A stretch of DNA of 45,243 nucleotides. Source: Escherichia phage vB_EcoS-CHD5UKE2. The stretch's first letter is position 1; the number at the start of each line of letters is the position of its first letter. The stretch lies in the sequence record NC_073059.1; one strand, written 5' to 3'. Shown piece after piece: positions 3,865 to 35,165 of the stretch. A program made the position numbers and the translations under genes. The notes below the pieces were generated by a model. That model was given only the letters and a program-made list of their open reading frames with translations, ran no database searches and was not told the DNA's origin.

Positions 3865-4965
3865 TTAGGACGCGCTGGTCGGAGTCAGCGTAACCAGTAC
3901 GCCAGCCGTTTCCTTGATGTTACGGGTCGGCACGGCCTGTGCTGCCTGGGTCTTGCGACGGCCTTTAGTATCGCCATCACCCACCGCGCCAACATCCTGG
4001 ACGGTTGCCGGAGCGTTGTCTACCTGGCCCTGATCCAGCTCCCAGTTGTCCTTGGTGGTGATATCCGCCAGTGTGAACGAGCGGACACCTTCAACCGGAG
4101 TACGAGCGGACGCCTTCAGACGATAGCCTTTAACAGCCACGTTGAAGTCGAACTCACCCTGCCACCAGCGCTCGATGTTCTCGTTACCGCCTTTTTCCTG
4201 CGCCAGCATATCGAGGCCGTTGGTGGTAACTGCAACCGCGCCAGGGACCAGACCCAGCATTTTGCCCGCGCCCATAGCATCGGCAGCGGCATCGGAGATA
4301 ATGAAACGACGGCCCAGGCCATCACCCATTACTTGCAGATCGCCGATCGCGAATACCTGCTCAGCGGAAGGCAGCGCCTGGTACGCAATGAAGTTAGCCC
4401 AGGTAACGCCATCCATAAACCAGGACTTAATCAAAGACGCCTGATCGCCGAACTTAGAAGCCGCCAGAGGGAAGTCTGCCAGGGTCGGGAAAGTACGACC
4501 GCCAACGCCATCAACGCGCGCCGGTTGGGTGTATGCTGCCGCTGCGTTGCTTTCGATCGCCGCTTTACTTGCGCCGATACCGGCCTTCAGGTAATGCAGC
4601 ATAATCGCTTGAGTAGCCTGTGCCGCAATCTCAGCCGCAACGCTGTTAACGTTGGTTTCGATCTTAGCCATCATAGCCTTAGTGATTGCAACCGGACCCA
4701 CTTTCGCGGAGAGGTTAACCGAGTTGGTCAGCATACGCGCCAGCACTTTAGCGGTTGCCGGAGTACCGACAGGTGCATATGCGTTACGGTCAGTAACGAG
4801 GTTGGCGATCAAGCCGACGGACATTTTTTCTACAACGTCCTTCAGCACTTCACCTGTACCGAGAACAACAGCGCCATTAGCGGCAGCGTTGAACACGTTC
4901 AGGTTGTCGGGGATCATTTGCGTAACCGCGGTAACGAGTTTACGCTGGAACACTGTTAAAGACAT
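3865..4965 (-). CDS. Major capsid protein
   Basis: 366 aa directly downstream of the scaffold gene; RBS AAAGGA before ATG 4965; terminator after the gene. Confidence 0.65.
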   Translation of the reverse strand: MSLTVFQRKLVTAVTQMIPDNLNVFNAAANGAVVLGTGEVLKDVVEKMSVGLIANLVTDRNAYAPVGTPATAKVLARMLTNSVNLSAKVGPVAITKAMMAKIETNVNSVAAEIAAQATQAIMLHYLKAGIGASKAAIESNAAAAYTQPARVDGVGGRTFPTLADFPLAASKFGDQASLIKSWFMDGVTWANFIAYQALPSAEQVFAIGDLQVMGDGLGRRFIISDAAADAMGAGKMLGLVPGAVAVTTNGLDMLAQEKGGNENIERWWQGEFDFNVAVKGYRLKASARTPVEGVRSFTLADITTKDNWELDQGQVDNAPATVQDVGAVGDGDTKGRRKTQAAQAVPTRNIKETAGVLVTLTPTSAS

Positions 4966-5062
4966 ATCGAAATCCTTTGAGTTGTGAGCATTCGCCCAGT
5001 GACGTTAATGTTACCTTAGATTTACGCGCTCGCAAAATCGCCAGCTTTCGCGGGCGATCTGC

Positions 5063-5767
5063 TTACTCGTCGTCGCCCATCTTAGCGATGATATCCCCTG
5101 CCTGTTTCGTCAGGTCCGTGATACCGAAGCTATGGCCCATCGTGATTTTAGACTTCGCATCTTCGATAACCTGTGTCGGTTTGCTCGGAGCGCCACCAGC
5201 GGGCGTGCCAGCCAGGACGGATGCAAAATCAGCGTTATTACGGAACTCTTTTTCAAGCTCGTCCATAGTCAGCGCGGACGGTTTGCCATCCTGCAAGACA
5301 CGCACTTTCAAGCTGCCGTCTTCACCGTCTTCCAGCGCGAGGCGCTCCATTACGTGGCGTTGCATGATGCCAGCATTCTTACCAAACAGCTTCGATGCCA
5401 GGTCTTTGGCAGCGCTGCCGATAGTGAGGTCGTGGATCTGCTTGCGATAGGATTCGATTTTCCCCGATGTGTCTGCTTCGTGTTTTGCAAACTTATCCTT
5501 CCAAGACTTATCGATCGCTTCGAGGTCGCCATTTTTGCGCGCGGCGGCTTCCTCTTTCTCTTTCGCAAGGCGCTCGGCTTCGGCGCGGCGTTCAGCTTCT
5601 GCTTTCTTCTCGCTCACCAGCTTTGCGTTGTTGTCTTTCAGACCCTTGATTTCCGCCTGTACTTCCTCAGCGGACATAAATGTTGATTTATACCCGTCGC
5701 CATCGGCAACAAAAAGCGCCTTCATACCTTCCGGCAACGCGTCATATTCTGCTTTAGTAAGTTTCAT
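5063..5767 (-). CDS. Scaffolding protein
   Basis: Start revised to ATG 5767 (MKLTKAEYDALPEG...) with RBS AGGGGGA; charged coiled-coil segment (KKAEAERRAEAERLAKEKEE); lies before the capsid gene. Confidence 0.55.
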   Translation of the reverse strand: MKLTKAEYDALPEGMKALFVADGDGYKSTFMSAEEVQAEIKGLKDNNAKLVSEKKAEAERRAEAERLAKEKEEAAARKNGDLEAIDKSWKDKFAKHEADTSGKIESYRKQIHDLTIGSAAKDLASKLFGKNAGIMQRHVMERLALEDGEDGSLKVRVLQDGKPSALTMDELEKEFRNNADFASVLAGTPAGGAPSKPTQVIEDAKSKITMGHSFGITDLTKQAGDIIAKMGDDE

Positions 5768-5857
5768 GCTATCCCCCTGGGATTGTGGCAGAGCGGGCCA
5801 CCCGCTCGACTTCACGCTTCTAATATTATCAGCGATAAAAATAATCGCAAAATTCGC

Positions 5858-5887
5858 TTGCAATCCTGGTATTGGTTGCACTATATT
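5858..5887 (+). promoter_or_regulatory. Sigma70-like promoter for the plus-strand island
   Basis: -35 TTGCAA (5858..5863), 18-bp spacer containing ATTGGTTGCA, -10 TATATT (5882..5887); second TTGGTTGCA at 5886..5894. Confidence 0.5.
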
Positions 5888-5922
5888 GGTTGCACACCAA
5901 CAGAGATATGAAGGAAAACAAA

Positions 5923-6237
5923 ATGAATAACATGACCGTAGCAACTCCAGTAGATGCAGCAATGACCCGTTTCAATAAAGCTGCCGTTGCCAATACCTTT
6001 ACCTTTCACGCGATGCGTAACGCTGAAGCGCTGAATCTGTGCCAGAGCATGAACGCTACTGAAGCTGCGAAAGCTGCGATCAATTCCGCAACCTTCGATA
6101 ATCCGGCTTGTGGTCTGGTTCCGGCATCTTTCATCAACGCCCTGGTCGAAGCCTTTAACGATTTCATGTGCGTTGATGCCGTTGAAGCAGTATGCGCTCG
6201 CTTAACCTCCATCGGTGGCAACATCAAGTTTAACTAA
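5923..6237 (+). CDS. Hypothetical protein (first gene of the plus-strand island)
   Basis: ATG 5923 with RBS AAGGAAAAC; 104 aa; no recognised motif. Confidence 0.5.
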   Translation: MNNMTVATPVDAAMTRFNKAAVANTFTFHAMRNAEALNLCQSMNATEAAKAAINSATFDNPACGLVPASFINALVEAFNDFMCVDAVEAVCARLTSIGGNIKFN

Positions 6238-6276
6238 ACCAAATGGGGCGAAAGCCCCAACAATGAGGAAACACAA

Positions 6277-7041
6277 ATGAGACTGACAAAAGACATTAAA
6301 AACCAGATTCTGGCTAACATCCTGCGCGGCCACGAAATCGCGACTGAAGCCAAATCAATCATGATGGACTCTCGCGACCTGGCGTACGCAATTACGCTGG
6401 ACTGTATGCCAAAAGGCATTCACACGTTCGCCGAGCTACGCGCATATATCGCAGAAATCCGCGATAACCAGTCGCAGATGTACGGCGTCAGCGTTTACAC
6501 CGACAAGGCGACGTATAGCTATAACAAAGACCGTCAGAAAGGCATTGGACGCGTTTACTGCTCCACTTTCGAAATCAACGCAGGCGGTAACATCCGTACC
6601 CTGCATATGAGCGGCGACGGATACCGCTACCGCCAGCACCGCGGATACTGGGAAGAAAAATATATGAATACGCTCGCGCCTGACGTTAGCGATATTGTAC
6701 CGGGGTACGAGGAAATTATGCTCGCGTCAGTATGTGAAGTGGATGAGGACGGAAAAGCGCTGCCGATATATCTACCACGCGGTCGCGTAGACTACCCGGC
6801 AGAGCATGATTTCTGCAAGCGCCTGGACCACAACGACAAGGCCCGCCGTGAATTGCGTGCGAAGTATGACGCGTTCAAACTAACCGTTACCGGCGTGCTG
6901 GATATGCACAATACTGACAAGAAGCTGATCGCGGCGTGGCCTGAAGTTGAACAATTCATTCCATACCCGGACAAGCCGAAGTCAACGGCAGTAGCGCTGG
7001 ATGTGAAGACGTTAAACGAAATCTGCGGTATTCCGCGCTAA
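6277..7041 (+). CDS. Hypothetical protein (island gene 2)
   Basis: 254 aa ORF with RBS GAGGAAACA; no recognised motif. Confidence 0.55.
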   Translation: MRLTKDIKNQILANILRGHEIATEAKSIMMDSRDLAYAITLDCMPKGIHTFAELRAYIAEIRDNQSQMYGVSVYTDKATYSYNKDRQKGIGRVYCSTFEINAGGNIRTLHMSGDGYRYRQHRGYWEEKYMNTLAPDVSDIVPGYEEIMLASVCEVDEDGKALPIYLPRGRVDYPAEHDFCKRLDHNDKARRELRAKYDAFKLTVTGVLDMHNTDKKLIAAWPEVEQFIPYPDKPKSTAVALDVKTLNEICGIPR

Positions 7042-7098
7042 CAAAAGGGGGCTGTAATGGCCCCGAATTATCGTCTACATAACCACGAGGAAATTAAA

Positions 7099-7614
7099 AT
7101 GATTAAAGTTAACTACGCCGATCTTAAAGCCGCTACGATATGCGCCGCAACTAATGACGTCCGATACTTCCTAAATGGTGTATTTTTCGACGAGAAAGGA
7201 TACATCGTGGCTACAGACGGTCACCGTTTGTTCTGCGGGTCTGCGGTTGTACCAGAAGGTGAAAGTAAAATAGTATCAATTAAAGGCCGCTTACCTACTA
7301 AATTCGAATACTGCAACATAGACGGCACCTCCGCCGCGTTCTTCGATAGTAAAGACGTATTAATAGCTACCATACCCATCGAGATTGTAGACGGGCTATT
7401 ATTTCCAGACTGGAGAAGAGTTACGTCTTTCATCAGCAATAAAGTGGAGGCTATCGGGTTTAACGGGGCATACCTATCCGACGCCTGCAAAATTGCTAAA
7501 TTGTTCGACCGTAAGTTTGAGGGATTAAAACTGGAATTTCAGGGAGTAGACAAGGCAACACGCGTGCTGTTCAAAGGAGGTGCCTTTTTAGTTATCATGC
7601 CGATGCGTTTGTAG
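7099..7614 (+). CDS. Truncated DNA polymerase III beta sliding-clamp (DnaN) homologue, about 171 aa
   Basis: Recalled DnaN signatures: DVRYFLNGVFF, ATDGHRL, FPDWRRV, AIGFNGAYLSD and C-terminal VIMPMRL (E. coli beta ends VVMPMRL); ATG 7099 with RBS GAGG; ORF-track start at 7057 lies in a hairpin. Confidence 0.6.
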   Translation: MIKVNYADLKAATICAATNDVRYFLNGVFFDEKGYIVATDGHRLFCGSAVVPEGESKIVSIKGRLPTKFEYCNIDGTSAAFFDSKDVLIATIPIEIVDGLLFPDWRRVTSFISNKVEAIGFNGAYLSDACKIAKLFDRKFEGLKLEFQGVDKATRVLFKGGAFLVIMPMRL

Positions 7615-7624
7615 TTAACAAAAA

Positions 7625-7643
7625 GGGGGCCATCACGGCCCCC
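7625..7643. terminator. Bidirectional terminator hairpin between the convergent island and spanin genes
   Basis: gggggcc-atcac-ggccccc with A-run upstream and T-run downstream. Confidence 0.5.
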
Positions 7644-7863
7644 GAATTATTTTCTGCAACTCCAGCACTTGCGCCCTTAGCTTAGCCCCGCATTCCATAT
7701 TTTTAACATCAACCAGCAAGTCTTCGTCTGGATCTGCCGATGCATTCTCAAAGGTGCAAGGCGGTCTATAGACCGACTCGGTTAGCGGCGTCGATGGCGC
7801 TTTGCTTGATCCGCACGCGCTCAGCATCAAAACTACAATCAGGACGGTTAGGACGCGTAACAT
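7633..7863 (-). CDS. Outer-membrane spanin (Rz1-like lipoprotein)
   Basis: Signal peptide with lipobox LSAC (MLRVLTVLIVVLMLSAC); RBS AGAGG; overlaps the 3' end of the i-spanin gene in another frame. Confidence 0.6.
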   Translation of the reverse strand: MLRVLTVLIVVLMLSACGSSKAPSTPLTESVYRPPCTFENASADPDEDLLVDVKNMECGAKLRAQVLELQKIIRGP

Positions 7864-8074
7864 ATTTTACAACCTCTTTCGTGATAGTCCGGTATTCCAC
7901 GTCGCGGGCTTGCTCAGCCTTCACCGACCCCTCAACAACCTTAGTTTGCTGCCGTTGGGCTTCCGCTTGCGCTTCTTGCGCCGCTTTCGCCACAACGCCA
8001 GTGCGGTAGGAATCACCCTGCCAGAATCCAACCGCCAGACCGATAACTAGTCCGATCGCCGCATATTTAATCAC
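7766..8074 (-). CDS. Inner-membrane spanin (Rz-like)
   Basis: N-terminal TM helix (IKYAAIGLVIGLAVGFW) and coiled-coil periplasmic part; no in-frame ATG, so GTG at 8074 (RBS GGGGG) is proposed instead of TTG at 8104. Confidence 0.55.
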   Translation of the reverse strand: MIKYAAIGLVIGLAVGFWQGDSYRTGVVAKAAQEAQAEAQRQQTKVVEGSVKAEQARDVEYRTITKEVVKYVTRPNRPDCSFDAERVRIKQSAIDAANRVGL

Positions 8075-9170
8075 GCCATAACCCCCGGTTTTTAAGCTGT
8101 GCAATAGTCATTAGTTCGCCGGTATCGGTGAACATCTTAGGCACTTTCACGCCGCGCATAATCTGGTCTGCGCGCTGCACCCCATATAATTCCTCCAGAA
8201 TATGGCGCGGCTGGCGCTGCACCCATGAGAAGAAATCAGTCTGCGCGTCGACCTGCTCACTCAGCAATCGACCCGCGTCAGCCTTCAGTGCCGGACGCTT
8301 ACCACTGGGCCAATCTTCCATGCCTTTAACTTTCCACGTCTCCGTCGAACGGCAGCAATAATGTAGCTTGCCCGGACCAGCGCCATATTGTGATCCAGCC
8401 ACCACTTTCCCGCCGCGCTTTCCTTTGGTGTCGGGAGTGACGTCAACAGGATAAAACAGGCGATCGCGTAGTTGGCACATTGGTGATGTGTGCGTATCCA
8501 ATGTAGCCAACCATTGGCGACCTTCGAGAATTTCGTCATTAGCTTTCACCATTAACTCGCGGGCGGTCGCCGCATAGTGGTTTACTGCGGACTTAACAAC
8601 ACTTGAGATAGCTTGCGCGCTACGACCGCCGAGAGCGCGCTTTACGTCCGCGATAATTTCCATAGTCGGCTTGCCCTGGATGAATCCAGCGCGCACCTGA
8701 TTCCCGATCTGCGTCCTGGTCCACTCAGAAAGTGAATCAGGCCATTGCATCATGGTGTTTCCCTGGAACGGGTTTTTCATAGCCGTGGCCGCAATCTGCG
8801 CGCCAGTCACTACGCCAACAACCTCAACAGCCGGTACGGCTACCGCAGGCTGGATCGCTGCCGTTAATGTATCGGCAAGATAATCAGCCTCGGTGTCGGC
8901 AAACTCCTGAAGGCTTTCAGCCAGCGCCTTAAACTCGGTGCGCAGTTCCGTTTTGACGGTTTTGTCTATTTGCGTTAACAGTGTGGTCAGTGCCTTGTTA
9001 TTCATGGACTTTTTGCCATCAAGTAACTCGGTCAGCTTGCCAAGTAACGTGGGTCGGAACTTCTCCCACATAGCCAACACCCGCCGCGCCTGGTCATTGC
9101 TCAGGCGCTGGGTGAAGATGTGACGGCGAATCATGCGATCCGCCATATGTTGATTAATTGTTCTCGCCAT
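8067..9170 (-). CDS. Head morphogenesis protein (Mu F / SPP1 gp7-like)
   Basis: 367 aa after the portal gene; motif TLDTHTSPMCQLRD typical of Phage_Mu_F domain. Confidence 0.6.
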   Translation of the reverse strand: MARTINQHMADRMIRRHIFTQRLSNDQARRVLAMWEKFRPTLLGKLTELLDGKKSMNNKALTTLLTQIDKTVKTELRTEFKALAESLQEFADTEADYLADTLTAAIQPAVAVPAVEVVGVVTGAQIAATAMKNPFQGNTMMQWPDSLSEWTRTQIGNQVRAGFIQGKPTMEIIADVKRALGGRSAQAISSVVKSAVNHYAATARELMVKANDEILEGRQWLATLDTHTSPMCQLRDRLFYPVDVTPDTKGKRGGKVVAGSQYGAGPGKLHYCCRSTETWKVKGMEDWPSGKRPALKADAGRLLSEQVDAQTDFFSWVQRQPRHILEELYGVQRADQIMRGVKVPKMFTDTGELMTIAQLKNRGLWRD

Positions 9171-10674
9171 TGTCCGCTACCTTGTCCGGGTCTTCTTCGG
9201 TAGATTCTACCGCATCAGGGGACATTTGAGGCAATGGATTCTGATTTCGCAATTCGTCTTCCACCTGCTCTACGGTTTGCGAGTCATCGATAACGCCCTG
9301 CGCCATCATCCACTTGATGAAGTCAGCCAGTCGGACCGTACCGGTCTGAACACCAGCCATCATTGCGGTCATAAGCTGCGCGTCAACCGTGATTTCGGTG
9401 TAGAACTTGTTCAGCGTCACGCGCTGGTCCGCGGTATCACCCGTGAATAGCTGGACGATTTGCAGCGCACGGTTGAAAGCCTTCTCAACGTTACCGGCAA
9501 TGAGCGACAGGATACTATTGTCAGTCTGCGCATCGTATGCCGCTTCAGTTGCCGTCTTTGGTGCAGTCCCCTTCTCAACCAGGGCCGCGCCCAGTTTAGC
9601 CATCTGCAATTCGCGGCGCTCACAAAGTGCAACAGACAAGTTGCGCTCCTCGGCCTGAATCAGTTTAGCGTCCATGTTCTGGCCCAGGATAACGCCCTTA
9701 GTCGCGCCGAGAGCAATCCCACCCTTCAGGTTTTTGTCGGCCCATGATTGAGTCAAGCCCGTGGCGACAAGGGTAGGCTGACCCACGATGTGCGCGATCT
9801 CGGCAACGTCCGCCTCAGCGTTGTAGTGCTTAATGTTGATGGATGCAATATCCGCCAGCGGCGCGGCGTCAGGCGTTGCGTTGTTGTCCACCGCACCGCA
9901 CCAGCAAAATGGCAGTTGAGTAAGCGCTCGACCGGCAGCATCCACCAGCGGCACAAGCTCGGTGCGGGTGAAGCCACGCGGCAAATCCATCTGCACCTCG
10001 GACGTGTCTGCGTTGTAAAACCAGCGGCGGGCGTGTGCTGCGCCGTTAATCATGCGCAATTCAGTCCAGATCGTTACTTCGTGGTTTGCAAAGTCGTCCG
10101 GGTCTTCGGTGCTGATTTCGTCCGTTTCCTTCAGCACGATTAGCGTGTCAATCCCGTGGGTCTGCCGCCAGTTGATGATCTGTTCTGCCGTATACAGGCG
10201 GATAAGCGGGCGGTGCGTCGCCATCTCGGCGGCGGTCTGCGGCACTACGTTACCCAGTTCATCAAAGTTAGCCTGGCGGTCGTAGTCCACCATAAAGCCC
10301 GCGCGGCCCGATTGCAGCACTTCCGACATAGCACCGCGCAGGAGTTGCGGCAGTGGCATTCCGCTGCCGTCTACGTCATCAATCAGGTCAGCCATCGCCC
10401 CGGAAAGGTCCAGACTTACCGGCTTAGCGAAGGCGACGCCTAACAGCGCATTAAGCGTGCGTGCGGTGGCGTTCAGGAATACAGCGCGTTGCTTATATGC
10501 CTTATATCGCGCCCGTGCTTTCGGGTCGGTATTATCGCCACTGGCGGGATGTGGCAGGTACAAGGGGCCGCACGCCTTCACGGCGCGCTCCCCCGCTACG
10601 CAATCCCGGATCATTTTCCACTCCTGCGCGATGCGCGCATAGAGTGGGTGCTGGTTGTCAACGTTAACGGTCAT
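9154..10674 (-). CDS. Portal protein
   Basis: 506 aa immediately downstream of the terminase large subunit; RBS AAGGAA; acidic C-terminus. Confidence 0.65.
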   Translation of the reverse strand: MTVNVDNQHPLYARIAQEWKMIRDCVAGERAVKACGPLYLPHPASGDNTDPKARARYKAYKQRAVFLNATARTLNALLGVAFAKPVSLDLSGAMADLIDDVDGSGMPLPQLLRGAMSEVLQSGRAGFMVDYDRQANFDELGNVVPQTAAEMATHRPLIRLYTAEQIINWRQTHGIDTLIVLKETDEISTEDPDDFANHEVTIWTELRMINGAAHARRWFYNADTSEVQMDLPRGFTRTELVPLVDAAGRALTQLPFCWCGAVDNNATPDAAPLADIASINIKHYNAEADVAEIAHIVGQPTLVATGLTQSWADKNLKGGIALGATKGVILGQNMDAKLIQAEERNLSVALCERRELQMAKLGAALVEKGTAPKTATEAAYDAQTDNSILSLIAGNVEKAFNRALQIVQLFTGDTADQRVTLNKFYTEITVDAQLMTAMMAGVQTGTVRLADFIKWMMAQGVIDDSQTVEQVEDELRNQNPLPQMSPDAVESTEEDPDKVADNGENN

Positions 10675-10684
10675 GGTCGTTTCC

Positions 10685-12070
10685 TTAGTAGAAGTCTACA
10701 GTTGGAACAACGGCGATAGGTCGAATCACTGGGAACAGGTGCGCAACAGGGTAGCCCGCGGCATCGTTCATGTGGTCCACACCGGCGGTTTTATCCGGCT
10801 CGCCTTTCTTCAGGTCATAAACCTGCTGTTCCAGACATTTCGCTAGTGTAGGGCATTTATCCAGGTTGACAAAATACTGGCGCACGCCCTTCGAGTTGCA
10901 CATCATCGTATTCATCGCGATCAATCTGTCTTTCACGGGCGGGTTAACGCTGTCATACTCCACCTCGAAGCCAGCGTCTTCCAGTTGCGCGATATCGGAC
11001 GACGATGCGTTAACAGTCTTACGAGACTTGCCACTGCTATCCGGGTAAACGACGACCCGACCGGCAGCACAATGATCGGGGTAGCGCTCCTCGATCGCCT
11101 CAATCATAGCCGGGGTATCAAACAGGTCCACGAATTCATCCACTGCGTGAATCTCGTCGCGGAACTCCTTGTTCTCGGTAGTGTGCTGCCGTCTGACGTA
11201 CACAACCGCCGCCATTTTCGTTACGTTAAAGTCCATACCGATAATCAGCGTATCATCCGGATGCACTTCCTCGGTGCTGGCGTTCTCTTCTCGGTTAAAC
11301 ATCTTATAGACCGCGCCAGACGTAAGGTTGACAAACAGGCCGTTCAGGTATGCGTCAATCAGGTTTGCCGGGTACTGGCTTCGCAGCGTGTCGATAAAGT
11401 CTGCCGGTAAGTGGTGGTTGTCGGTAGTCTTTGCCCTGATCAAACGTTTTTGGCTATCCTTCTCCACTTCGAAAATCTGATACATCGCCCGGAAGCCTTC
11501 CGGCGTGGATACGATGACAAACTGGCGCACCAGGCCCGCACGCAGACGACCAAGCAATTTGTGGTAAGCCGCCATAGCGACGTCTTGCTTCGTGGTGTCG
11601 AACTCATCGGCAACAATCCACGCGGCGTTAACCCCGATCAGGCGGGTGTAGTTCTCCATTGACTCACAAATAACGCGCGTCCATTTGCCTTTCACCAGCA
11701 CGCTGTAAATTTTATCTTGCTTGTTGAACTTCCACCGGAATCCAGCCTCGTCGAAAGCCTTCTCAAGCTCCGGGTACATGATTTTAACAAGGAGTGGAAT
11801 AGTCGGTTCGGTCACGATGCCATCATGACCAGGGTTAAGTGTAAGAAGCTGGATGACCTTACGCGCCGCGACCCATGACTTTCCGCCACCGAAGCCGGAG
11901 CAAAGGCCGAGGATTTTAGTCTTAGTGTCGCGCAGTAATTCCACCTGGTGCGGTAGGCAATCAGGCTGATACAGGCGGACGGCCTGCGCAACGCGCGTAG
12001 GGCGTGGCGGACGGTTGCGCTTTGCGATCGAGCGCTCAAGTGCGCGGTGTTCTGCCGCATAGTTACGCAT
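10685..12070 (-). CDS. Terminase large subunit
   Basis: 461 aa; Walker A-like GFGGGKS near the N-terminus; overlaps the small-subunit stop. Confidence 0.7.
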   Translation of the reverse strand: MRNYAAEHRALERSIAKRNRPPRPTRVAQAVRLYQPDCLPHQVELLRDTKTKILGLCSGFGGGKSWVAARKVIQLLTLNPGHDGIVTEPTIPLLVKIMYPELEKAFDEAGFRWKFNKQDKIYSVLVKGKWTRVICESMENYTRLIGVNAAWIVADEFDTTKQDVAMAAYHKLLGRLRAGLVRQFVIVSTPEGFRAMYQIFEVEKDSQKRLIRAKTTDNHHLPADFIDTLRSQYPANLIDAYLNGLFVNLTSGAVYKMFNREENASTEEVHPDDTLIIGMDFNVTKMAAVVYVRRQHTTENKEFRDEIHAVDEFVDLFDTPAMIEAIEERYPDHCAAGRVVVYPDSSGKSRKTVNASSSDIAQLEDAGFEVEYDSVNPPVKDRLIAMNTMMCNSKGVRQYFVNLDKCPTLAKCLEQQVYDLKKGEPDKTAGVDHMNDAAGYPVAHLFPVIRPIAVVPTVDFY

Positions 12071-17927: not shown

Positions 17928-20189
17928 TTAATCTTTCAGGTCGTCATCGGTCGCTGAAAGCGTGATTGGGATATCCGATTTGATGACCAGATTCGACGAC
18001 CCATAGATGGCCCCGGTGTGTGGATCTGTATAAAAACCGAGCACGCCGCGCTCCACCATATCGTCGATTGCCTTCGTCGATGTGCCACCTTTCGCGAGTC
18101 CAGCCTGGCGGACAATTGCCGATTTACTGAATCCAGTATGGTCCGGGTTATCTTCCATCAGTTTCTCCAGTGCCGCATAAAGCACCTTCTCTTTTTCGTT
18201 GCGCGGTCCGGCGGTGTTCTCTTCCTTAACTGCTGCCTTGCCTGCGGCCTTCGCCTGTTCAATAGCGAACGGTGCCAGGGCGACCGGTACGAGGTAAAGA
18301 GTCTCGTCGCGTGGCGTGGATGCAATTGGCTTGACGTCCCAACCGGCAACCACATCGCCGAAGTCCGGACCGGTGCTGGTGGACTGGTGGGCTTCGAACG
18401 CCTCGGACTTACGGAGATCCACCTTCACCTTGCACTTGAGCAGGACGAAGCCACGCGGCGCTTGCTTAATCCCGTTACGGGATTTTTCGTGATACAGGTT
18501 GAGTTGGCCTGGCTGGTTGTCATCCGGCTGTTCCAGGAAGAACGCAGAATCAACAGCACCATGAAGCGCGCCGGACCCGCGTGGCGATCTGCTGCCGTTT
18601 GCGCCCTTAGCCGGGTGATGGATGACGCCCGCACTGCCACCTGTATTTTCCGCAATGGCCTTCAGCGCCTTGACCACTTCGCCCATATCGCTGGCGTTGT
18701 TCTCGTCGAACGGTTTGGCATCAGCGGACCGCAGCGCTACAGTCTGGTTGAGTGAGTCGAAGGCCACCAGGCCAACCGGCTCCCCGTTAGCGGTGCGGTT
18801 GATAAAGCTGATAACTTCGCGCAAGCCTGACTTGCTGGTAATATCCCAGCCGCGTGATTGCAGATCGACAATGTGCAGCTTGTCGAGGTCGTGCTCGTAT
18901 TTAATCTGCAATGCTTCCTTACGCTGGTTGGAGGCTTCGCCACCTTCCGCATCGAAATAGAAGTTATGGCACTGGACGACCTTCGCGCCACCAAACGGAA
19001 TACCGGCAGATACGGACGCCATCTGGCCCAGCACGTAGAACGACTTACCAATGTTCGACTCACCGGCAAGATACCAGGTCGATTTGAAGTTGACCAGGCC
19101 TTCGATGATCGGGTCGTGCTTACTGAATAGTGCAACAGGTTCGTTGTCCAGGTCAGCGTCGGTGCATTCGCCGTACTCGTCGCCGTCGCCGACCGCATCA
19201 ACAATATGTTCATAGCATGATTCCACTTCCTCGTCGTCCAGTCCCGGAAGGATGGCGGCGATTTGCTTGCGTGACATGTTGTGCGGTTCAACGTTCAAGT
19301 GGTCCGGGATACCGATCAGACGTAACGCCAGGTGCTGGTGTTTGTTCAGTTCGGAACAGCACTCGTTGCCGGTGTGCATACACTTGAAACGGATCTCGCC
19401 ATCCTTAACCATGATAGCCGTCGACCCGCCGCCGCTATGCAGGTGCTCGTTCGGGCACGGCACTTCATAACCGCGACCGGATGACAGTGGTTCAAAGCCA
19501 GCCTGGAAGCACCAGTCCAGAATCCCGTCCGCCACGCCATCGTCGCCCTGGGTCAGTTCGCGGCGTACTTCCTCTTTCTCCACTCCCAGCTTGTCAGCCA
19601 GGCGAAGCAGGCGACGGACACGGGCGCGCTTGCCAGGATGACACGACACGGTAGATCCGGAATGGGGGAGGAATTGCAGGTTGTTAACGTTTTTTGTGCA
19701 ATCATCAAACGGCACGTCTTCCAGCCCCAGGTGTTTCAATAGCGCGAACTGCGCACGGCCTAAATCGGAAACATCAACCGGTTTATCAGTGAGCACCAGG
19801 AAACGGGCGCAACGTGTGCCGCCCTTCAGCGGGTGGCGGTCGCCTGTAGTGGAGTAGTAGACGTGGGATAAGCCGGATTTGCGAAAGGCACGCTTAACGC
19901 GACCGAGGGTACGGTTGTCAGTGCGGTCCAGGTCATAGAACAGTACGGAACGGACACCTACTTCCGTAGCACGACGGCCTCGGCCTTTAGTGGTGGCGAC
20001 AATGCCTTCGGCCTTGCCTTTCACCTCGTCGTATTCTTTCTTAGTCTCGTCGCCGGTAATGGTTACGCTGGATAGCTCAACGGTATCCACGACGTATTCC
20101 ATAAACTCGGCTTCAGTCATAGAATGGTTTTTAACACGCTTGCCGTACTTACCACCAACGGTGCCGAACTCAATTAAATAGTTTTTCAT
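17928..20189 (-). CDS. DNA primase / replicative helicase (RecA-like ATPase domain)
   Basis: 753 aa; Walker A GESNIGKS in the C-terminal half; Cys/His cluster CPNEHLH...C in the N-terminal half. Confidence 0.6.
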   Translation of the reverse strand: MKNYLIEFGTVGGKYGKRVKNHSMTEAEFMEYVVDTVELSSVTITGDETKKEYDEVKGKAEGIVATTKGRGRRATEVGVRSVLFYDLDRTDNRTLGRVKRAFRKSGLSHVYYSTTGDRHPLKGGTRCARFLVLTDKPVDVSDLGRAQFALLKHLGLEDVPFDDCTKNVNNLQFLPHSGSTVSCHPGKRARVRRLLRLADKLGVEKEEVRRELTQGDDGVADGILDWCFQAGFEPLSSGRGYEVPCPNEHLHSGGGSTAIMVKDGEIRFKCMHTGNECCSELNKHQHLALRLIGIPDHLNVEPHNMSRKQIAAILPGLDDEEVESCYEHIVDAVGDGDEYGECTDADLDNEPVALFSKHDPIIEGLVNFKSTWYLAGESNIGKSFYVLGQMASVSAGIPFGGAKVVQCHNFYFDAEGGEASNQRKEALQIKYEHDLDKLHIVDLQSRGWDITSKSGLREVISFINRTANGEPVGLVAFDSLNQTVALRSADAKPFDENNASDMGEVVKALKAIAENTGGSAGVIHHPAKGANGSRSPRGSGALHGAVDSAFFLEQPDDNQPGQLNLYHEKSRNGIKQAPRGFVLLKCKVKVDLRKSEAFEAHQSTSTGPDFGDVVAGWDVKPIASTPRDETLYLVPVALAPFAIEQAKAAGKAAVKEENTAGPRNEKEKVLYAALEKLMEDNPDHTGFSKSAIVRQAGLAKGGTSTKAIDDMVERGVLGFYTDPHTGAIYGSSNLVIKSDIPITLSATDDDLKD

Positions 20190-20199
20190 TGTTGTCGTC

Positions 20200-20649
20200 T
20201 CATTTAGCCCACTGGCGAATAGTAGAACGGTTGATTCCGGTCATCTCAGCTATCTGATTCCATGATAGCCCTTCCTCGCGTAGCCGCTTAACGACCGGTG
20301 CATACTTCTCTCGGGCGAGGGTCATCTCGCGTGCCGCTTCTTCTGATTTGCGCACTGCCTCGATAGCGCCGCCTTTCAACAGGTCAAGCTCGGCTTGCAT
20401 ATTGTCTCGCTCGTCCGCAAGGCCGTTATACGACTGCATGTAAAAGGATAACTTGTCCATAAGGGCCGTGATTATGTCAGATGCCGTGGTCTTATCCATC
20501 GCCAGAATATCGGCAGCTTGCTCGGCGTGCGGGATCGGGTCTGCGCAAAAATCGCCGAAGGTGATAGTCTTTCCGTCGTCCCAGGAAAGGGCGATTTGGT
20601 GAGTCCATTTCGTATGGTTCCAGCGATTTAAGGTTTCGTTAGTGCTCAT
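20200..20649 (-). CDS. HTH transcriptional regulator (putative)
   Basis: 149 aa; C-terminal HTH-like LSWNQIAEMTGINRSTIRQWAK; first gene from a strong divergent promoter. Confidence 0.5.
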   Translation of the reverse strand: MSTNETLNRWNHTKWTHQIALSWDDGKTITFGDFCADPIPHAEQAADILAMDKTTASDIITALMDKLSFYMQSYNGLADERDNMQAELDLLKGGAIEAVRKSEEAAREMTLAREKYAPVVKRLREEGLSWNQIAEMTGINRSTIRQWAK

Positions 20650-20682
20650 TGTCTTGTCCCGTGTGTTAGTGGTGTAGGCCGC

Positions 20683-20711
20683 ATACTATGCCTAAAAATA
20701 AACGGTGTCAA
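20683..20711 (-). promoter_or_regulatory. Sigma70-like promoter for the regulator/primase operon
   Basis: Minus-strand reading TTGACA-N17-TAGTAT (near-consensus). Confidence 0.6.
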
Positions 20712-21733: not shown

Positions 21734-21921
21734 TGACTATATTCTTTGTTTTATTTCGCTGCCGTATTACCGGCGACGAGCAACCAGAAATTGTTATGAA
21801 TCAAAACTGGAATTGTTGCTGGACGCAAGCCCGCGGACTGGCATCAACCATGAACGAAGCCGCGAAGCGCGCCAATGTTAAACACGATTATTACATTGCT
21901 CAATTTTCAAGGGTGGAATAA
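21733..21921 (+). CDS. Hypothetical small protein
   Basis: ATG 21733 with RBS GGAGAC (ORF-track start 21718 is not ATG); 62 aa. Confidence 0.4.
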   Translation: MTIFFVLFRCRITGDEQPEIVMNQNWNCCWTQARGLASTMNEAAKRANVKHDYYIAQFSRVE

Positions 21922-23321
21922 TGGCTATTAAACCGAAGCGCAAAACGCAATCCGGCAGCAATACGGAGCACTCATTACTTGGGCCATCGGGATCTAAAAA
22001 ATGGATGGGGTGTCCTGCCGCCCTGGTAGTCGAAAAAGGTATCCCGAATGAGTCCGGGCAAGCGGCGATTAACGGTACGAGTATGCACACCGTATCTGAA
22101 GTAGTGTTAAACCGCATCATTGCCGGTGAGAAGAAGCTATCCGCGAAGACGTACAAAGGGTGCTACGTCGAGAACGAAGGTAAGGGACCGGTAAAGGCCC
22201 ACCCGAAAGCACCGAAAGGCGGCGTGCTGGTCAACGACGATATGGTGAAACAGTGCGATGCATACATCGACCACTGGCGACCGCTCCTTGAAGTGGCGGA
22301 GTTTGTACAGCTTGAAATGCGCGCCGATCTCACCCGCATCTTGCATCCAGGCTTCGAGATAGACGGCAACAAGGTGAAGACGTTCGGAACTGCCGATATG
22401 GTAATGGTCATGAAGAAGACCGACGGCACGTACATGCTGATTGTTGGCGACCTGAAGACCGGGCGACATAAGGTCGAGGCGAAAGAAAACAAACAGCTTA
22501 TGTTGTACGCGCTGGGCCTGCTGCGCAAGCTGCAAACCATGTACGACATTACAACCGTTCGCCTGGTAATCTTCCAGCCGTATTGCGGCGGGGCGTCGGA
22601 GTGGGATATTACCGTGGAAGCGCTGGAGATATTCGCGAAGTTTGCATCCAAGCGTGCTATTGACGCACTGGACGCGTATTCCCGCGGCAAGAAGGGGCTT
22701 ACCCGTGCCGACTTCCGACCGAGCGTTGATGCCTGTCAGTGGTGTAGATTTGCGGATCAGTGTAGTGCCCGCGCTAAGGCCGCCATCGACACGATGACCC
22801 CACCAACGGCAACAGACGACGACCTGGCGGACGAAGCACCGAAGGCTACCGATCGCGAAGCCCGGAAAGCGGCACGACGTGCGAAGCGTGGCAAGAAAGA
22901 AGAAGAAGCACCAGGCGCTATGAGCGCGGCGGAACTGCGCAAGGCATATGAAGGTCTTGACGCAATGCGCCAGCACATCAAGGCTATCGAGTCCGCGGTA
23001 TTCAAGGCCGTAATGGCGGGCGATGGCGAATCGCTGGGCCTCAAGATGGTTGCCGGTAAGGAAGGTAATCGCAAGTGGGCGGACGAAAGCGAAGTGATTG
23101 AAGTCTTCACGAAGGCCCGGATCAAGCGCGATGTGATGTACAAAGAAACATTGCTCAGTCCTACCGATGCCGAGAAGGTATTGAAGGACGAGAAACCGAA
23201 AGTGTGGGCGAAGTTGTGTGATAAAATCACGCGCGCCCCAGCTAAACCGGTATTGGCACCAATCGACGACCCGCGCCCCGCGTGGTCTGAAGCTACTGAT
23301 GAGGACTTAAGTAATGAATAA
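21921..23321 (+). CDS. PD-(D/E)xK exonuclease, Cas4/RecB-like
   Basis: 466 aa; nuclease core motifs GTADMVMV and GDLKTG...QLMLYALGL; Cys cluster CQWCRFADQC; Lys/Arg-rich C-terminal region. Confidence 0.55.
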   Translation: MAIKPKRKTQSGSNTEHSLLGPSGSKKWMGCPAALVVEKGIPNESGQAAINGTSMHTVSEVVLNRIIAGEKKLSAKTYKGCYVENEGKGPVKAHPKAPKGGVLVNDDMVKQCDAYIDHWRPLLEVAEFVQLEMRADLTRILHPGFEIDGNKVKTFGTADMVMVMKKTDGTYMLIVGDLKTGRHKVEAKENKQLMLYALGLLRKLQTMYDITTVRLVIFQPYCGGASEWDITVEALEIFAKFASKRAIDALDAYSRGKKGLTRADFRPSVDACQWCRFADQCSARAKAAIDTMTPPTATDDDLADEAPKATDREARKAARRAKRGKKEEEAPGAMSAAELRKAYEGLDAMRQHIKAIESAVFKAVMAGDGESLGLKMVAGKEGNRKWADESEVIEVFTKARIKRDVMYKETLLSPTDAEKVLKDEKPKVWAKLCDKITRAPAKPVLAPIDDPRPAWSEATDEDLSNE

Positions 23322-23556
23322 GGTGTTTGCATTCGTATTGATGATTATGCTCGGTGCGCTGGGCTTTATCCTGCATTGCGTGCAGGGCGTGTTAATGGTG
23401 GCCTGGATGATTCGCCATCCATCCCGCTGGCTGGACGATGGCTACAGTGACGTTGCCGTAGACTGGGTGTTAAAGCATAAAGACCGCCCGCCGTTAAGCT
23501 GGATCGAGAACGCCTCCGACTACGTGATCCGAAATCTTTTTAATAAAAGTGCTTGA
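23314..23556 (+). CDS. Small membrane protein
   Basis: 80 aa with two hydrophobic helices; start overlaps the exonuclease stop. Confidence 0.45.
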   Translation: MNKVFAFVLMIMLGALGFILHCVQGVLMVAWMIRHPSRWLDDGYSDVAVDWVLKHKDRPPLSWIENASDYVIRNLFNKSA

Positions 23557-23581
23557 CCGCTTAGGCGCAACCAAGTAAATT
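23553..23581 (+). promoter_or_regulatory. Sigma70-like promoter upstream of the SSB gene
   Basis: TTGACC-N17-TAAATT with two direct GCAACCAAG boxes (23567..23575, 23583..23591). Confidence 0.45.
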
Positions 23582-23645
23582 AGCAACCAAGCCGAACGGG
23601 GTGGCTCACAATAACCCCGATACATGCGAAATGAGGAAATGAAAA

Positions 23646-24377
23646 ATGGCTAAAGTCAACCTGAAAAACGTGCGCGTATGCTTCCTGAAAATTTGGGAAC
23701 GTGATACCCCTAAACAGGATGGACAAAAACCGGCATACCGTGCCGTGATTCTTCTTGATAAAGAAGATCCGCAGGTGGACAAAGTGGAAGCGGCAGCGCG
23801 CGCAGTGCTCACCGACAAGCTGAAATCCGAGAAGAACGCCGATAAGTGGATGGACCGCCACTACGCCCAGGATTCTAAGGAATGCGCAGTTCGCGACGGT
23901 GATGAGCGCGACGAAGTAACCGAAGAGTTTGAAGGCATGCTGTACATCAACGCCAAATCGTTCAAACAGCCTAACATCCAAACGTCACTGGGCGAGAAGC
24001 AGACCGAACAGGGTCTGACTATCGACGGCGACGAGATCGAAGGCCAGGAAATCTATTCCGGTTGTTATTGCAACGTGTCCCTGGATATTTGGGCGTGGAA
24101 CAACACCAACGGCAAAGGTCTAGGTGCGGGTTTGATGGGTCTTCGCTTCCGTGGTGATGGTGATTCCTTCGGTGGCGGCGGGTCTTCTTGTTCCGATGAC
24201 GACCTGGGCGACGATGACGAAGATGAAGCACCGCGCAAGGCTAAGAAGTCCAAACGTCGTGATGACGATGACGAAGACGAGGAAGACGAAAAACCTCGCA
24301 AGCGTCGCAAGTCCCGCGATGACGAAGATGAGGACGACGACGAAGACGAAGCACCACGTAAACGTCGCCGCCGTTAA
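23646..24377 (+). CDS. ssDNA-binding protein (T7 gp2.5-like / DUF2815-like), with alternating acidic/basic C-terminal repeat tail
   Basis: N-terminus MAKVNLKNVRVCF and YINAKS resemble the gp2.5-like family as I recall it; C-terminal 60 aa are three DDEDE...APRKRRK units; RBS GAGGAAATG. Confidence 0.45.
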   Translation: MAKVNLKNVRVCFLKIWERDTPKQDGQKPAYRAVILLDKEDPQVDKVEAAARAVLTDKLKSEKNADKWMDRHYAQDSKECAVRDGDERDEVTEEFEGMLYINAKSFKQPNIQTSLGEKQTEQGLTIDGDEIEGQEIYSGCYCNVSLDIWAWNNTNGKGLGAGLMGLRFRGDGDSFGGGGSSCSDDDLGDDDEDEAPRKAKKSKRRDDDDEDEEDEKPRKRRKSRDDEDEDDDEDEAPRKRRRR

Positions 24378-24395
24378 GGGCAAAGCCCACTATTC

Positions 24396-24419
24396 AAGCC
24401 CGCTTATTGCGGGCTTTTT
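24396..24419 (+). terminator. Rho-independent terminator after the SSB gene
   Basis: Hairpin aagcccgc-ttatt-gcgggctt followed by a T-tract. Confidence 0.6.
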
Positions 24420-24435
24420 ATTAGGACAATGAAAA

Positions 24436-24606
24436 ATGCGTATTAAAGCCAGTGAAGTAAAAGTCGGAATGCGTGTATGGTCCAAATTGCTGGGCGAGTA
24501 TTTTACCGTTGCCGAGATTCGCAACAACGGCGAAGAGATTGCCTTGTCGGATGGTATCTTCTCCATGATCGGCAGCGCTGACGCAGTAGTGAGGATAAAG
24601 CAATGA
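24436..24606 (+). CDS. 56-aa protein translationally coupled to the DNA polymerase, not in ORF track
   Basis: ATG 24436 after RBS AGGA; stop TGA overlaps the polymerase ATG (ATGA). Confidence 0.45.
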   Translation: MRIKASEVKVGMRVWSKLLGEYFTVAEIRNNGEEIALSDGIFSMIGSADAVVRIKQ

Positions 24607-26894: not shown

Positions 26895-26898
26895 GATT

Positions 26899-27090
26899 AT
26901 GAAAGCAGAATTAAGCATAATGCGCGCTGGCGCGACGGACGATGACGAGATTCGCATCGTCCTTAGACTGGAACGTGGCAAGACCATCACGGCACTTGTC
27001 ACGCCTGAAAACCTGGCGCTGGCGCTAACCGGTCGATCGGACATACCGGTAGACCTCCGTCTGCGTAACGTGGAGTTGCAAACCAAATGA
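26899..27090 (+). CDS. Hypothetical small protein
   Basis: ATG 26899 with RBS AGGAAG; 63 aa. Confidence 0.4.
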   Translation: MKAELSIMRAGATDDDEIRIVLRLERGKTITALVTPENLALALTGRSDIPVDLRLRNVELQTK

Positions 27091-27365
27091 CACCCGAAGG
27101 CAAGATACAAAGTCACCTGATGCGACGGGTGAAAGAGGTCGGCGGATTCTGCCGTAAACTGGCATGGGAGGGGCGCGCAGGTGCGCCCGACCTGATTATT
27201 ATCATCAACGGCATCATAGTATTCGTCGAAGTGAAGCGCCCCGGCGGAAAACCGAAGCCGCACCAGGTGCGAGAACATGAGCGAATGGCCCGCCGCGGTG
27301 CTGACGTTCGCGTTATTGACAACATAGCCGACTGCGATTTATTGGTTGCTGAATTGGTCGCGTAG
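27087..27365 (+). CDS. VRR-NUC domain nuclease
   Basis: 92 aa; PDLIIIINGIIVFVEVKRPGGKPKPHQ matches the PD-(D/E)xK VRR-NUC pattern; ATGA coupling to the upstream gene. Confidence 0.6.
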   Translation: MTPEGKIQSHLMRRVKEVGGFCRKLAWEGRAGAPDLIIIINGIIVFVEVKRPGGKPKPHQVREHERMARRGADVRVIDNIADCDLLVAELVA

Positions 27366-27405
27366 CGGTATAGTGTGCCGGTTAGCCCTATCGAGGATTT
27401 TAGAA

Positions 27406-27579
27406 ATGATTGAAGAAAAACGTTGCAGTAACTGCGGCTGCATCAAGCCGCTATCCCAGTTCCACAAATACACCGGAAAGACTGCGCGCAGTCCAGACGG
27501 GCATCGGGCCGAGTGCAAATCGTGCCGCAATAAGAAAGAACGTGATCGGCAGCGCCGCTATCGCGCAGAACAAGAATAA
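27406..27579 (+). CDS. Zinc-ribbon small protein
   Basis: ATG 27406; CSNCGC ... CKSCRNK four-Cys arrangement; 57 aa. Confidence 0.4.
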   Translation: MIEEKRCSNCGCIKPLSQFHKYTGKTARSPDGHRAECKSCRNKKERDRQRRYRAEQE

Positions 27580-27615
27580 TCAATACGGCGGGCTTGTCCC
27601 GCCATTTTTGGAGGC

Positions 27616-27840
27616 ATGACGATGAAAGAACATTACCGACTCACCAAGCTGGGCGAGTGCAAACCTGGCGATCGCGTATGGTTTATCGCAGGCATGAATT
27701 ACCCGCTGCCGTTGACAGTGTGCTGGCAGAAGTTTAAGAGCTTCCGCGCGACCGGTGTGCACATTGGACACGCCACCAACTACGACGCCACAAAGAGGAA
27801 TTGGAACAGTGAAACCGAAGTCTGGAAAAAGGCGGAATAA
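27616..27840 (+). CDS. Hypothetical protein
   Basis: 74 aa ORF directly upstream of the helicase gene. Confidence 0.4.
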   Translation: MTMKEHYRLTKLGECKPGDRVWFIAGMNYPLPLTVCWQKFKSFRATGVHIGHATNYDATKRNWNSETEVWKKAE

Positions 27841-27844
27841 AGAT

Positions 27845-34860: not shown

Positions 34861-34941
34861 AGCTGAATCCTCTTAAAATTGGTTGCATTCTTGATTGAGC
34901 GGTGCAATACTAAAACTCAACCAAATATAGGAGATGATAAC

Positions 34942-35163
34942 ATGAAAACTTTAATTATGATTTGTGCGGTCCTTTTGTCCGGTTGTGCTGTAGAACGCAA
35001 CAACGGCGATTGCATTACGGTTGCTTACGGTAGCTGCATGTTACGCTACGTTGACGGGCAAAAAGTCCCTGCCGGGGACGTGGACATGCGCTTCACGGGC
35101 CTATCTGCCGATAGCGACGGCAATTTCTCAGGCACTGTATCTGTTAAATCACGGGAGTGGTAA
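34942..35163 (+). CDS. Small lipoprotein, candidate superinfection-exclusion factor (Llp/Cor-like by context)
   Basis: ATG 34942 with RBS AGGAG; signal peptide plus lipobox LLSGC; 73 aa; placed beside receptor-binding tail genes on the opposite strand. Confidence 0.5.
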   Translation: MKTLIMICAVLLSGCAVERNNGDCITVAYGSCMLRYVDGQKVPAGDVDMRFTGLSADSDGNFSGTVSVKSREW

Positions 35164-35165
35164 TA

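Follow-up and report, generated by a model that had tools for sequence, protein, structure and literature searches.

The peptide-binding pocket of the bacterial beta clamp, DnaN, is a central hub of replication and repair and an antibiotic target, as for the griselimycins. A complete clamp contains three clamp-fold domains in approximately 366 amino acids (aa; PF00712, PF02767 and PF02768). The DnaN dimer interface is formed by I78 and F106 facing I272 and L273, plus E298–E304 ion pairs, and the pocket is composed of subsite I (R152, L155, T172, G174, H175, R176, L177, P242, R246, V247, V360 and M362) and subsite II (H175, N320, Y323, V344, M362, P363, M364 and R365), V344 being one of two pocket positions that vary among real clamps (reviewed in PMC11139829). 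Short phage homologues of this subunit of DNA polymerase III (Pol III) were noted in 2011 and considered likely horizontal acquisitions that can be assumed to be dispensable (Kazlauskas and Venclovas, NAR 39:8291; PMC3201878); our literature searches for a characterised truncated phage clamp gave only this computational note, and found no experimental study of the family. Here we examine one such gene, coding for a 171-aa product that we designate the mini-clamp, in the 45,243-bp sequence of Escherichia phage vB_EcoS-CHD5UKE2 (NC_073059.1; the window). The family itself is already known, since GenBank calls this gene DNA polymerase III beta subunit and its homologues were noted in 2011; what is new is that the protein retains only half of domain III, that its conservation is selective for the pocket, that both ring interfaces are absent, that a dimer is predicted and that the gene is dispensable within the genus.

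Searches with the mini-clamp sequence, its model and its family agree in relating it to DnaN. A phmmer search of PDB sequences returned E. coli-type beta clamps (E = 1e-6 to 4e-6), and an AlphaFold (AF2) model of the monomer, built from 14 homologues, reached a predicted local distance difference test (pLDDT) of 89 and a predicted TM-score (pTM) of 0.86. The top PDB matches to this model in a Foldseek search were all bacterial beta clamps (probability 1.00, query-normalised TM-score, TMq, ca. 0.65), with the 171 residues spread across ca. 260 DnaN columns. A profile of 164 family members aligned to E. coli DnaN with 118 bits, profile positions 10–157 corresponding to DnaN 137–285 and positions 124–181 to DnaN 312–365; only the latter alignment fully covers the C-terminal unit, including FN..Y and MPMR. 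These alignments indicate that the mini-clamp comprises domain II followed by the latter half of domain III (beta-alpha-beta-beta-beta), with no counterpart in the family alignment for domain I and DnaN residues 254–311. The Dhillonvirus form is further reduced by loss of the second domain II helix, still present in longer relatives. The mini-clamp is not a full DnaN, because its TIGR00663 score is 25.5 bits, short of the 137.65 required, and PF02767, the Pfam model of the central domain, stayed below threshold (22 bits against a gathering cutoff, GA, of 27); the DNA-clamp fold homologous to DnaN is supported by the AF2 model, by Foldseek and by the family hidden Markov model (HMM). The original prediction, made from the sequence alone, had described the last product of the island as a DnaN homologue of less than half the length of a clamp, and the profile and structural comparisons that it proposed, against domains II and III, bear this out with significant similarity.

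The head-to-tail dimer interface is missing from the mini-clamp: in the family alignment, all the residues assigned to it (PMC11139829) fall in the absent parts, domain I and residues 254–311, so that both ring-closing interfaces are gone. Judging from the alignment, the protein cannot form a canonical ring, nor a canonical heterodimer with host beta. With neither domain I nor the I272/L273 region, the mini-clamp is unlikely to act by the canonical route as the poison subunit for host beta that had been suggested. No clamp-loader gene was noted among the phage proteins scanned.

The pocket, in contrast to the rest of the protein, is almost intact. The 171-aa product carries DVRYFLNG, ATDGHRL, FPDWRRV, AIGFN and the C-terminal VIMPMRL in the order given in the original prediction, which placed them along the clamp cleft, and these motifs do correspond to cleft residues: in the profile alignment the mini-clamp is identical to E. 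coli DnaN at 17 of the 18 published pocket positions, in both subsites, V344 being the sole difference. Across the 164 family members, the 18 pocket positions average 81% identity to E. coli DnaN, versus 20% at the other 147 aligned columns; V344 is the only pocket position that varies freely, and almost all positions conserved in at least 80% of the family are in or beside the pocket motifs. A host-type pocket kept across very divergent phages is expected from a multi-ligand or host-ligand constraint. From its sequence, the mini-clamp appears to be a clamp cut down to the least that can still make up the pocket.

An exhaustive profile search showed that this architecture is widespread. The best 150 cluster representatives at 50% identity were nearly all of 170–250 aa (range 141–312), and almost all matched end to end; a tblastn search found relatives in 234 GenBank phage records. 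Additionally, many phage proteins of 163–250 aa in BFVD, from phages of Serratia, Pantoea, Rhodococcus, Gordonia, Bacillus and Xanthomonas, matched the mini-clamp model end to end (TMq 0.75–0.86). The CHD5UKE2 protein belongs to the short phage polIII-beta class, matching phrog_3007 over residues 1–171 (E = 5.2e-52). Labels within the family are inconsistent, and include "DNA polymerase III beta subunit", "beta clamp domain-containing protein", hypothetical protein and "RusA-like Holliday junction resolvase", with some relatives named "processivity factor" by BFVD and GenBank curators. The RusA-like label, found in PHROG 3007 and RefSeq, was examined and rejected, as there was no RusA match in Pfam or NCBIfam and the fold is that of a DNA clamp; both fold and sequence indicate that it is a misannotation, which is spreading (e.g., RefSeq NC_054637.1 gp08 and NC_016566.1).

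The mini-clamp gene is the last of three plus-strand genes (Table 1), preceded by gene1 and by a gene coding for an Nmad5 protein. These three genes occupy a slot whose contents vary among relatives. Gene1 and Nmad5 were found together in phages Bas85 and ZCEC11 and, judging by match coverage, in most other records; Nmad5 followed by the mini-clamp in WF5505; the mini-clamp followed by Nmad5, in reverse order, in EP23 (L009); gene1 with the mini-clamp in L008; and the mini-clamp alone in L006, L007 and L068. Only CHD5UKE2, among the records examined, contains all three. The occurrence of every combination, and of both orders, indicates independent cargo rather than an operon of obligate partners, and it speaks against the suggestion that the two upstream proteins are partners of the mini-clamp. 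Compared with Bas85, the mini-clamp is a clean 536-bp insertion (7080–7615) lying exactly between two hairpin modules, of which Bas85 has a single copy and no mini-clamp. These modules (AAAGGGGGC...GCCCCGAATTAT) flank the gene exactly and form a direct repeat, D1, with 70% identity and a spacing of 579 nt. A clean insertion between hairpin repeats is the signature of gain or loss of a cassette by recombination at the hairpins. The variable contents of the slot, together with this insertion, uphold the earlier view of an accessory cargo island.

An unfiltered HMM search of all six frames of the Bas85 genome found no family member anywhere in it. The PolA, nuclease, single-stranded DNA-binding protein (SSB), SNF2 and primase-helicase of Bas85 are nevertheless near-identical to those of CHD5UKE2. 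Conversely, the Buchananvirus Sa179lw has a mini-clamp and no annotated PolA or PolB. A phage with the same PolA and no mini-clamp, and PolA-less phages with one, indicate that the mini-clamp is accessory, rather than a clamp that PolA must have.

Gene contexts in other phages point to DNA replication, since most often the family is found in replication modules. The mini-clamp gene is situated 1–4 bp after polA in a module encoding a DUF2800 nuclease, an Enc34-type SSB, PolA and SNF2 (loci L002–L005), or ca. 1.1 kb upstream of a DUF2800-SSB-PolA-SNF2 module (L012–L022); in L010 it adjoins genes for a helicase and an NrS-1-type primase-polymerase and, in Buchananvirus-type phages (L036), ParB and methylase genes. 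The same PolA module is present in CHD5UKE2, at 21,921–29,269. The Enc34-type SSB of this module (23,646–24,377) terminates with a stretch of acidic residues and then a basic tail (...DEDEDDDEDEAPRKRRRR), and the SSB orthologues of other mini-clamp phages end in acidic/hydrophobic tips (...DDPMFG, ...ADALI).

A search for a ligand encoded by the phage gave no convincing candidate. No canonical clamp-binding motif was found by motif scan in PolA, SSB, SNF2, Nmad5 or the gene1 product, none was present or conserved in 14 PolA orthologues, and no C-terminal motif recurred across phage groups among 10,832 open reading frames (ORFs) from 93 loci. The best C-terminal candidate (...DQLRLI) belongs to a tyrosine integrase and was discarded. 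The sequence QLMLY of the DUF2800 nuclease, conserved in its orthologues as QLQLY, QLNLY or QLKLY, was also rejected as a clamp-binding motif, because it lies directly after the E-x-K catalytic residues and is the QxxxY motif of RecB-family PD-(D/E)XK nucleases. A further candidate match, QLNLY, lies in the primase-helicase (residue 562); loose motif matches in replication proteins are, in number, close to a rough chance estimate. Additionally, comparison of CHD5UKE2 with Bas85 found no gene co-varying with the mini-clamp, the other differences being a tail-fibre segment, the N-terminus of the primase-helicase plus the adjacent helix-turn-helix (HTH) gene, and two short segments. The stretch containing the primase-helicase N-terminus and the HTH regulator gene (19,856–20,684) has no DNA match in Bas85, and is the largest of its kind besides the mini-clamp and the tail-fibre segment.

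A dimer was modelled with AlphaFold as a fusion of two copies through a 40-residue disordered linker, using a 21-row paired alignment, and was assessed by its confidence values and secondary structure. The model had a pTM of 0.80 over 382 residues. In both copies a beta-strand formed at residues 118–122, where the monomer model has coil, and the mean pLDDT of residues 111–120 rose from 78 in the monomer to 92 in the dimer. The model suggests a two-fold homodimer formed through the truncated half-domain, in which two half-domains might together restore one whole clamp domain, an arrangement that is not known from any sliding clamp. In a Foldseek search of the PDB, the dimer model gave a TMq of 0.31 to single DnaN chains, a value without meaning here, since no sequential alignment of a two-fold dimer to a single chain is possible. 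Charge, taken as a guide to non-ring DNA binders following Kazlauskas and Venclovas, gave a mixed picture: the isoelectric point (pI) of the mini-clamp is 8.3 (net charge +2) versus 5.25 for DnaN, and the family spans 4.9–9.6 around a median of 6.8. A few K/R residues, lysines among them, are conserved on the two surviving helices, those that face the channel in complete clamps.

Our preferred reading, to which we give somewhat less than an even chance, is that the mini-clamp works as a ringless pocket module, probably a dimer, for the capture of clamp-binding motifs, the most likely source of which would be host proteins. It is based on the host-type conservation of the pocket, the independence from polymerase type, the dispensability of the gene and the lack of an evident ligand motif in the phage. 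We infer that the pocket would bind canonical clamp-binding motifs (QLxLF-type), whose likeliest owners would be host Pol III alpha and epsilon, clamp-loader delta, Pol I, ligase, Hda, MutS/L and the translesion polymerases; the mini-clamp would compete with host beta for these proteins, diverting them during infection, as in the decoy suggested by the original prediction, and the net effect may be either their sequestration or their recruitment to the phage replisome. It would do so as an optional accessory, carried as a 579-bp cassette between terminator hairpins in a fixed promoter-to-terminator cargo slot, and would probably be expressed with the non-structural genes through the putative ATTGGTTGCA promoter or operator described below. 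A bolder extension, which we hold as doubtful, is that a ringless two-pocket "mini-hub" shared by phages of many hosts hijacks the host interactome of clamp-binding motifs, from the clamp loader and Pol III to repair and translesion enzymes, either starving the host clamp or re-routing its enzymes to phage DNA. Several points weigh against motif capture as such. A simple decoy would harm phages that may depend on host Pol III, and the placement in the PolA module in several lineages suggests a constructive role in phage replication and not pure sabotage of the host; the conserved lysines of the channel helices and the pI, higher than that of DnaN, would leave room for DNA binding; the dimer comes from a linker fusion only, and AF2 may favour models in which a truncated clamp domain is completed; and regular-expression scans would miss non-canonical motifs in phage proteins. 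As an alternative, the mini-clamp would be a recruiting adaptor, with one surface on the phage replisome or DNA and its pockets bringing host Pol I, ligase and the Pol III core to phage forks without the host clamp loader. Such an adaptor would account for both the host-type pocket and the synteny with replication modules, would draw some support from the conserved lysines of the channel helices, would fit any polymerase type and, as an enhancer, its own dispensability, and would gain two pockets from dimerisation, as in beta. We consider it rather unlikely, since it requires a second interaction surface and conservation outside the pocket is weak, with few lysines, and since no partner gene co-varies with it between CHD5UKE2 and Bas85.

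The original prediction also contemplated a minimal processivity factor for the phage polymerase. In the form considered here, this would be a non-ring tether similar to UL42/UL44 that would hold DNA through its helices and PolA or a primase-polymerase through its pocket. The position immediately 3′ of polA or in or near the replication module, the predicted dimer, the pI above that of DnaN, the K/R residues conserved on the channel-lining helices and the "processivity factor" labels of relatives are all in its favour. Nevertheless, this possibility is weakened, and appears unlikely, because Bas85 has near-identical replication genes and no mini-clamp, mini-clamps of the Sa179lw type occur without PolA, the PolA orthologues lack a clamp-binding motif, the family is not uniformly basic and one domain II helix, the second, is missing from the Dhillonvirus form. 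We regard as improbable that the mini-clamp acts with Nmad5, and perhaps with the gene1 product, in a DNA modification or replication-coupled pathway, tethering Nmad5 to nascent DNA in the manner of PCNA and DNMT1. The genes for Nmad5 and the mini-clamp are adjacent in CHD5UKE2, WF5505 and EP23, distant Nmad5 homologues occur in mini-clamp-bearing modules (L017–L022), Nmad5 heads the PolA module of L092, and methylase genes neighbour mini-clamps in L002 and L036; however, both genes assort independently, with mini-clamps alone in the slot, Nmad5 without mini-clamp in Bas85, ZCEC11, L092 and L093, and both orders, no Nmad5 was found within the fetched stretch in 80 of the 88 mini-clamp loci, and Nmad5 has no clamp-binding motif. 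Finally, the 2011 view of dispensable horizontal acquisitions (PMC3201878) and the patchy distribution within the genus would be compatible with a decaying, functionless fragment of a host dnaN gene. This has a negligible probability: the family is large and old, with nearly all of the best 150 clusters being short, end-to-end matches and with relatives in phage records and BFVD entries across host phyla, the ORF is uninterrupted, the fold is predicted with confidence, and the contrast in DnaN identity between the pocket and the remaining columns effectively refutes decay. Capture of clamp-binding motifs, most likely from the host, remains our preferred reading.

The slot has a fixed regulatory entrance and a fixed terminator exit, as indicated by a conserved tandem motif and a terminator. 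The promoter of its own that the original prediction gave the island corresponds, in the promoter scan, to a weak sigma-70-like match (TTGCAA, 5858–5863; 18-nt spacer; TATATT, 5882–5887): only 9 of 12 positions agree with the consensus, and matches of this quality are not commoner here than in shuffled sequence. Overlapping it are two tandem copies of ATTGGTTGCAC (5871–5881 and 5885–5895) with a 14-bp spacing, the repeat (D5) being exact over 12 nt. The motif ATTGGTTGCA(N), which takes the form ATTGGTTGCAC at the slot, occurs 11 times in the genome versus 0.9 expected (5871, 5885, 14,253, 16,915, 17,478(-), 17,509(-), 20,850(-), 30,299, 31,968(-)/31,971 and 34,878). Copies are arranged as tandem or inverted pairs, and most are just upstream of non-structural or moron-like genes and in the same orientation, often followed by TATNNT. 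In seven of seven close Dhillonvirus relatives examined, the tandem pair precedes the first gene of the slot, whichever gene this is. From this distribution, ATTGGTTGCA probably serves as promoter or operator throughout the phage, and the HTH protein whose gene lies at 20,200–20,649 may bind it. At the other end, the terminator scan scored the distal hairpin, which is also an inverted repeat (I3), on both strands, as expected from the bidirectional terminator proposed earlier.

Table 1. Features of the cargo slot of phage vB_EcoS-CHD5UKE2 and flanking genes (coordinates in the window)
Feature	Coordinates	Strand	Remarks
Major capsid and scaffold genes	3865–5767	-	flank the island
Regulatory entrance of the slot	5858–5895	+	weak sigma-70-like match plus two tandem ATTGGTTGCAC copies
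gene1, 104 aa (109 aa if the start is ATG 5908)	5923–6237	+	ORF; variable cargo gene
GC-rich hairpin, gene1/Nmad5 gap	6244–6259		terminator-like; T-run on minus strand only
Nmad5 protein, 254 aa	6277–7041	+	Pfam PF18757, full length
Hairpin module 3′ of Nmad5 (stem 7047–7064)	7043–7079		first copy of direct repeat D1
Mini beta-clamp, 171 aa	7099–7614	+	DnaN derivative; last gene of the island
Bidirectional intrinsic terminator (stem 7625–7643)	7622–7658		common with the converging o-spanin gene; second D1 copy
Spanin, MuF-like, portal and TerL genes	7633–12070	-	flank the island

The window is essentially the complete genome of a Dhillonvirus-type E. coli siphophage. The region 5700–7800 showed 94–99% identity, over 83% of its length, to Escherichia phages vB_EcoS-101114BS4, WF5505 and "rolling", and matched ca. 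150 further Dhillonvirus records more partially. It gave no match, at megablast level, in 5,426 complete E. coli genomes, and it is thus not a resident prophage gene in these. The limits of the three plus-strand ORFs coincide exactly with those first proposed, as does their location inside the minus-strand head and packaging block, between the genes for capsid and scaffold and those for spanins, MuF, portal and TerL. The ATG of the mini-clamp at 7099, with a GAGG Shine-Dalgarno sequence, is consistent with the family, and the alternative ATG at 7057 would give 185 aa. The spanin genes of this block overlap each other (o-spanin, with lipobox LSAC, 7633–7863; i-spanin, 7766–8104; both on the minus strand), and are distant from the holin and endolysin genes near 14.5–15.9 kb. 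There is a second plus-strand island (34,879–36,131) between minus-strand tail-fibre genes, with a ATTGGTTGCA motif ahead of it at 34,878; its product is a DUF6453 protein (E = 3e-118), annotated in Bas85 as membrane protein/moron, and it looks like another cargo slot.

The two upstream proteins had been described as devoid of recognisable motifs, which holds for the product of gene1 and not for the middle one. Gene1 matched phrog_24635, of unknown function (E = 2e-64), and nothing in Pfam, NCBIfam, PADLOC or PDB; it is absent from the closest relatives WF5505, 101114BS4 and rolling, and present in Bas85, ZCEC11 and L008. The middle product is a full-length Nmad5, a family reportedly defined by Iyer and colleagues in 2013, with residues 1–253 aligned to positions 1–206 of the 206 of PF18757 (E = 6.7e-54, 183.5 bits against a GA of 27), and it also matches phrog_1965; searches against PADLOC, NCBIfam and PDB sequences gave nothing useful for it. 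None of the three proteins of the island matched a PADLOC-DB defence model at E ≤ 0.01. Distant Nmad5 homologues are encoded in L017–L022 (ca. 13.5–14.2 kb) and L092 (6001–6699), either between the genes for SSB and PolA or just upstream of that for the DUF2800 nuclease. Nmad5 may be an accessory of the PolA replication module rather than specifically a base-modification enzyme, and Nmad5 and the mini-clamp both seem to be optional accessories of the PolA replication system, which Dhillonviruses keep in a separate slot.

In Dhillonviruses SMS22 and SMA8, a single change in Nmad5 (K216E/K296E) allows escape from the Tmn defence (Yamashita et al. 2025, Commun Biol 8:290; PMC11846954), K216E being the one described in SMA8. 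In the same study, deletion of nmad5 was tolerated and did not confer escape, the gene could not be cloned, apparently because of toxicity, and the Dhillonvirus anti-Tmn gene was situated elsewhere in the genome than nmad5 (PMC11846954). The CHD5UKE2 Nmad5 carries the wild-type lysine K216, so that this phage may be sensitive to Tmn unless it carries an anti-Tmn gene.

If our reading is correct, a widespread phage pocket protein would represent a new route of host takeover or of replisome assembly. The mini-clamp would also be a tool to titrate or pull down clamp-binding proteins in vivo, and a minimal scaffold for the screening of pocket-directed inhibitors. For Dhillonviruses, which are used in phage-therapy engineering, the slot in the head region offers a plug-and-play cargo site with a fixed promoter or operator and a terminator. 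Additionally, the analysis flags the misannotation as a RusA-like Holliday junction resolvase that is spreading through RefSeq.

The known systems differ in how far they resemble the mini-clamp. E. coli DnaN (PDB 1MMI/2POL) shares with it the clamp fold, a homologous domain II and half domain III and nearly the whole pocket, including the C-terminal MPMRL, but has 366 aa and contains domain I, residues 254–311 and one channel-facing helix that the mini-clamp lacks. The short phage homologues noted in 2011 (PHROG 3007; from Dhillonvirus, Kagunavirus, Buchananvirus and others) are the same family, with the same length class and coverage of domains II and III, and the CHD5UKE2 gene differs from them only as an allele. 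The Nmad5 of SMS22 and SMA8 is of the same 254-aa type, with K216, and is encoded at the same locus beside the scaffold gene; the neighbouring clamp-like gene is not mentioned in that study (PMC11846954). Monomeric beta I272A/L273A binds clamp-loader delta ca. 50-fold more tightly than dimeric beta (PMC11139829), and it resembles the mini-clamp in having an intact pocket in a ring that cannot close. It is, however, an engineered protein of full length, whereas the mini-clamp lacks the small domain-III loop that gives delta its second contact; by analogy, the tight binding of delta by monomeric beta shows how a pocket without a ring could be a strong sink. The herpesvirus proteins UL42, a monomer, and UL44, a C-clamp dimer, also have the clamp fold without a closed ring or a clamp loader, and accommodate a partner peptide in an interdomain groove, and UL44 dimerises about a two-fold axis, as predicted for the mini-clamp. 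Nevertheless, they have two full domains, bind DNA through a strongly basic face and are dedicated to a viral polymerase as their partner, whereas the mini-clamp has 1.5 domains and a variable charge, no polymerase motif was found for it and it is dispensable beside an unchanged PolA; there is no sequence relationship between them closer than the common fold.

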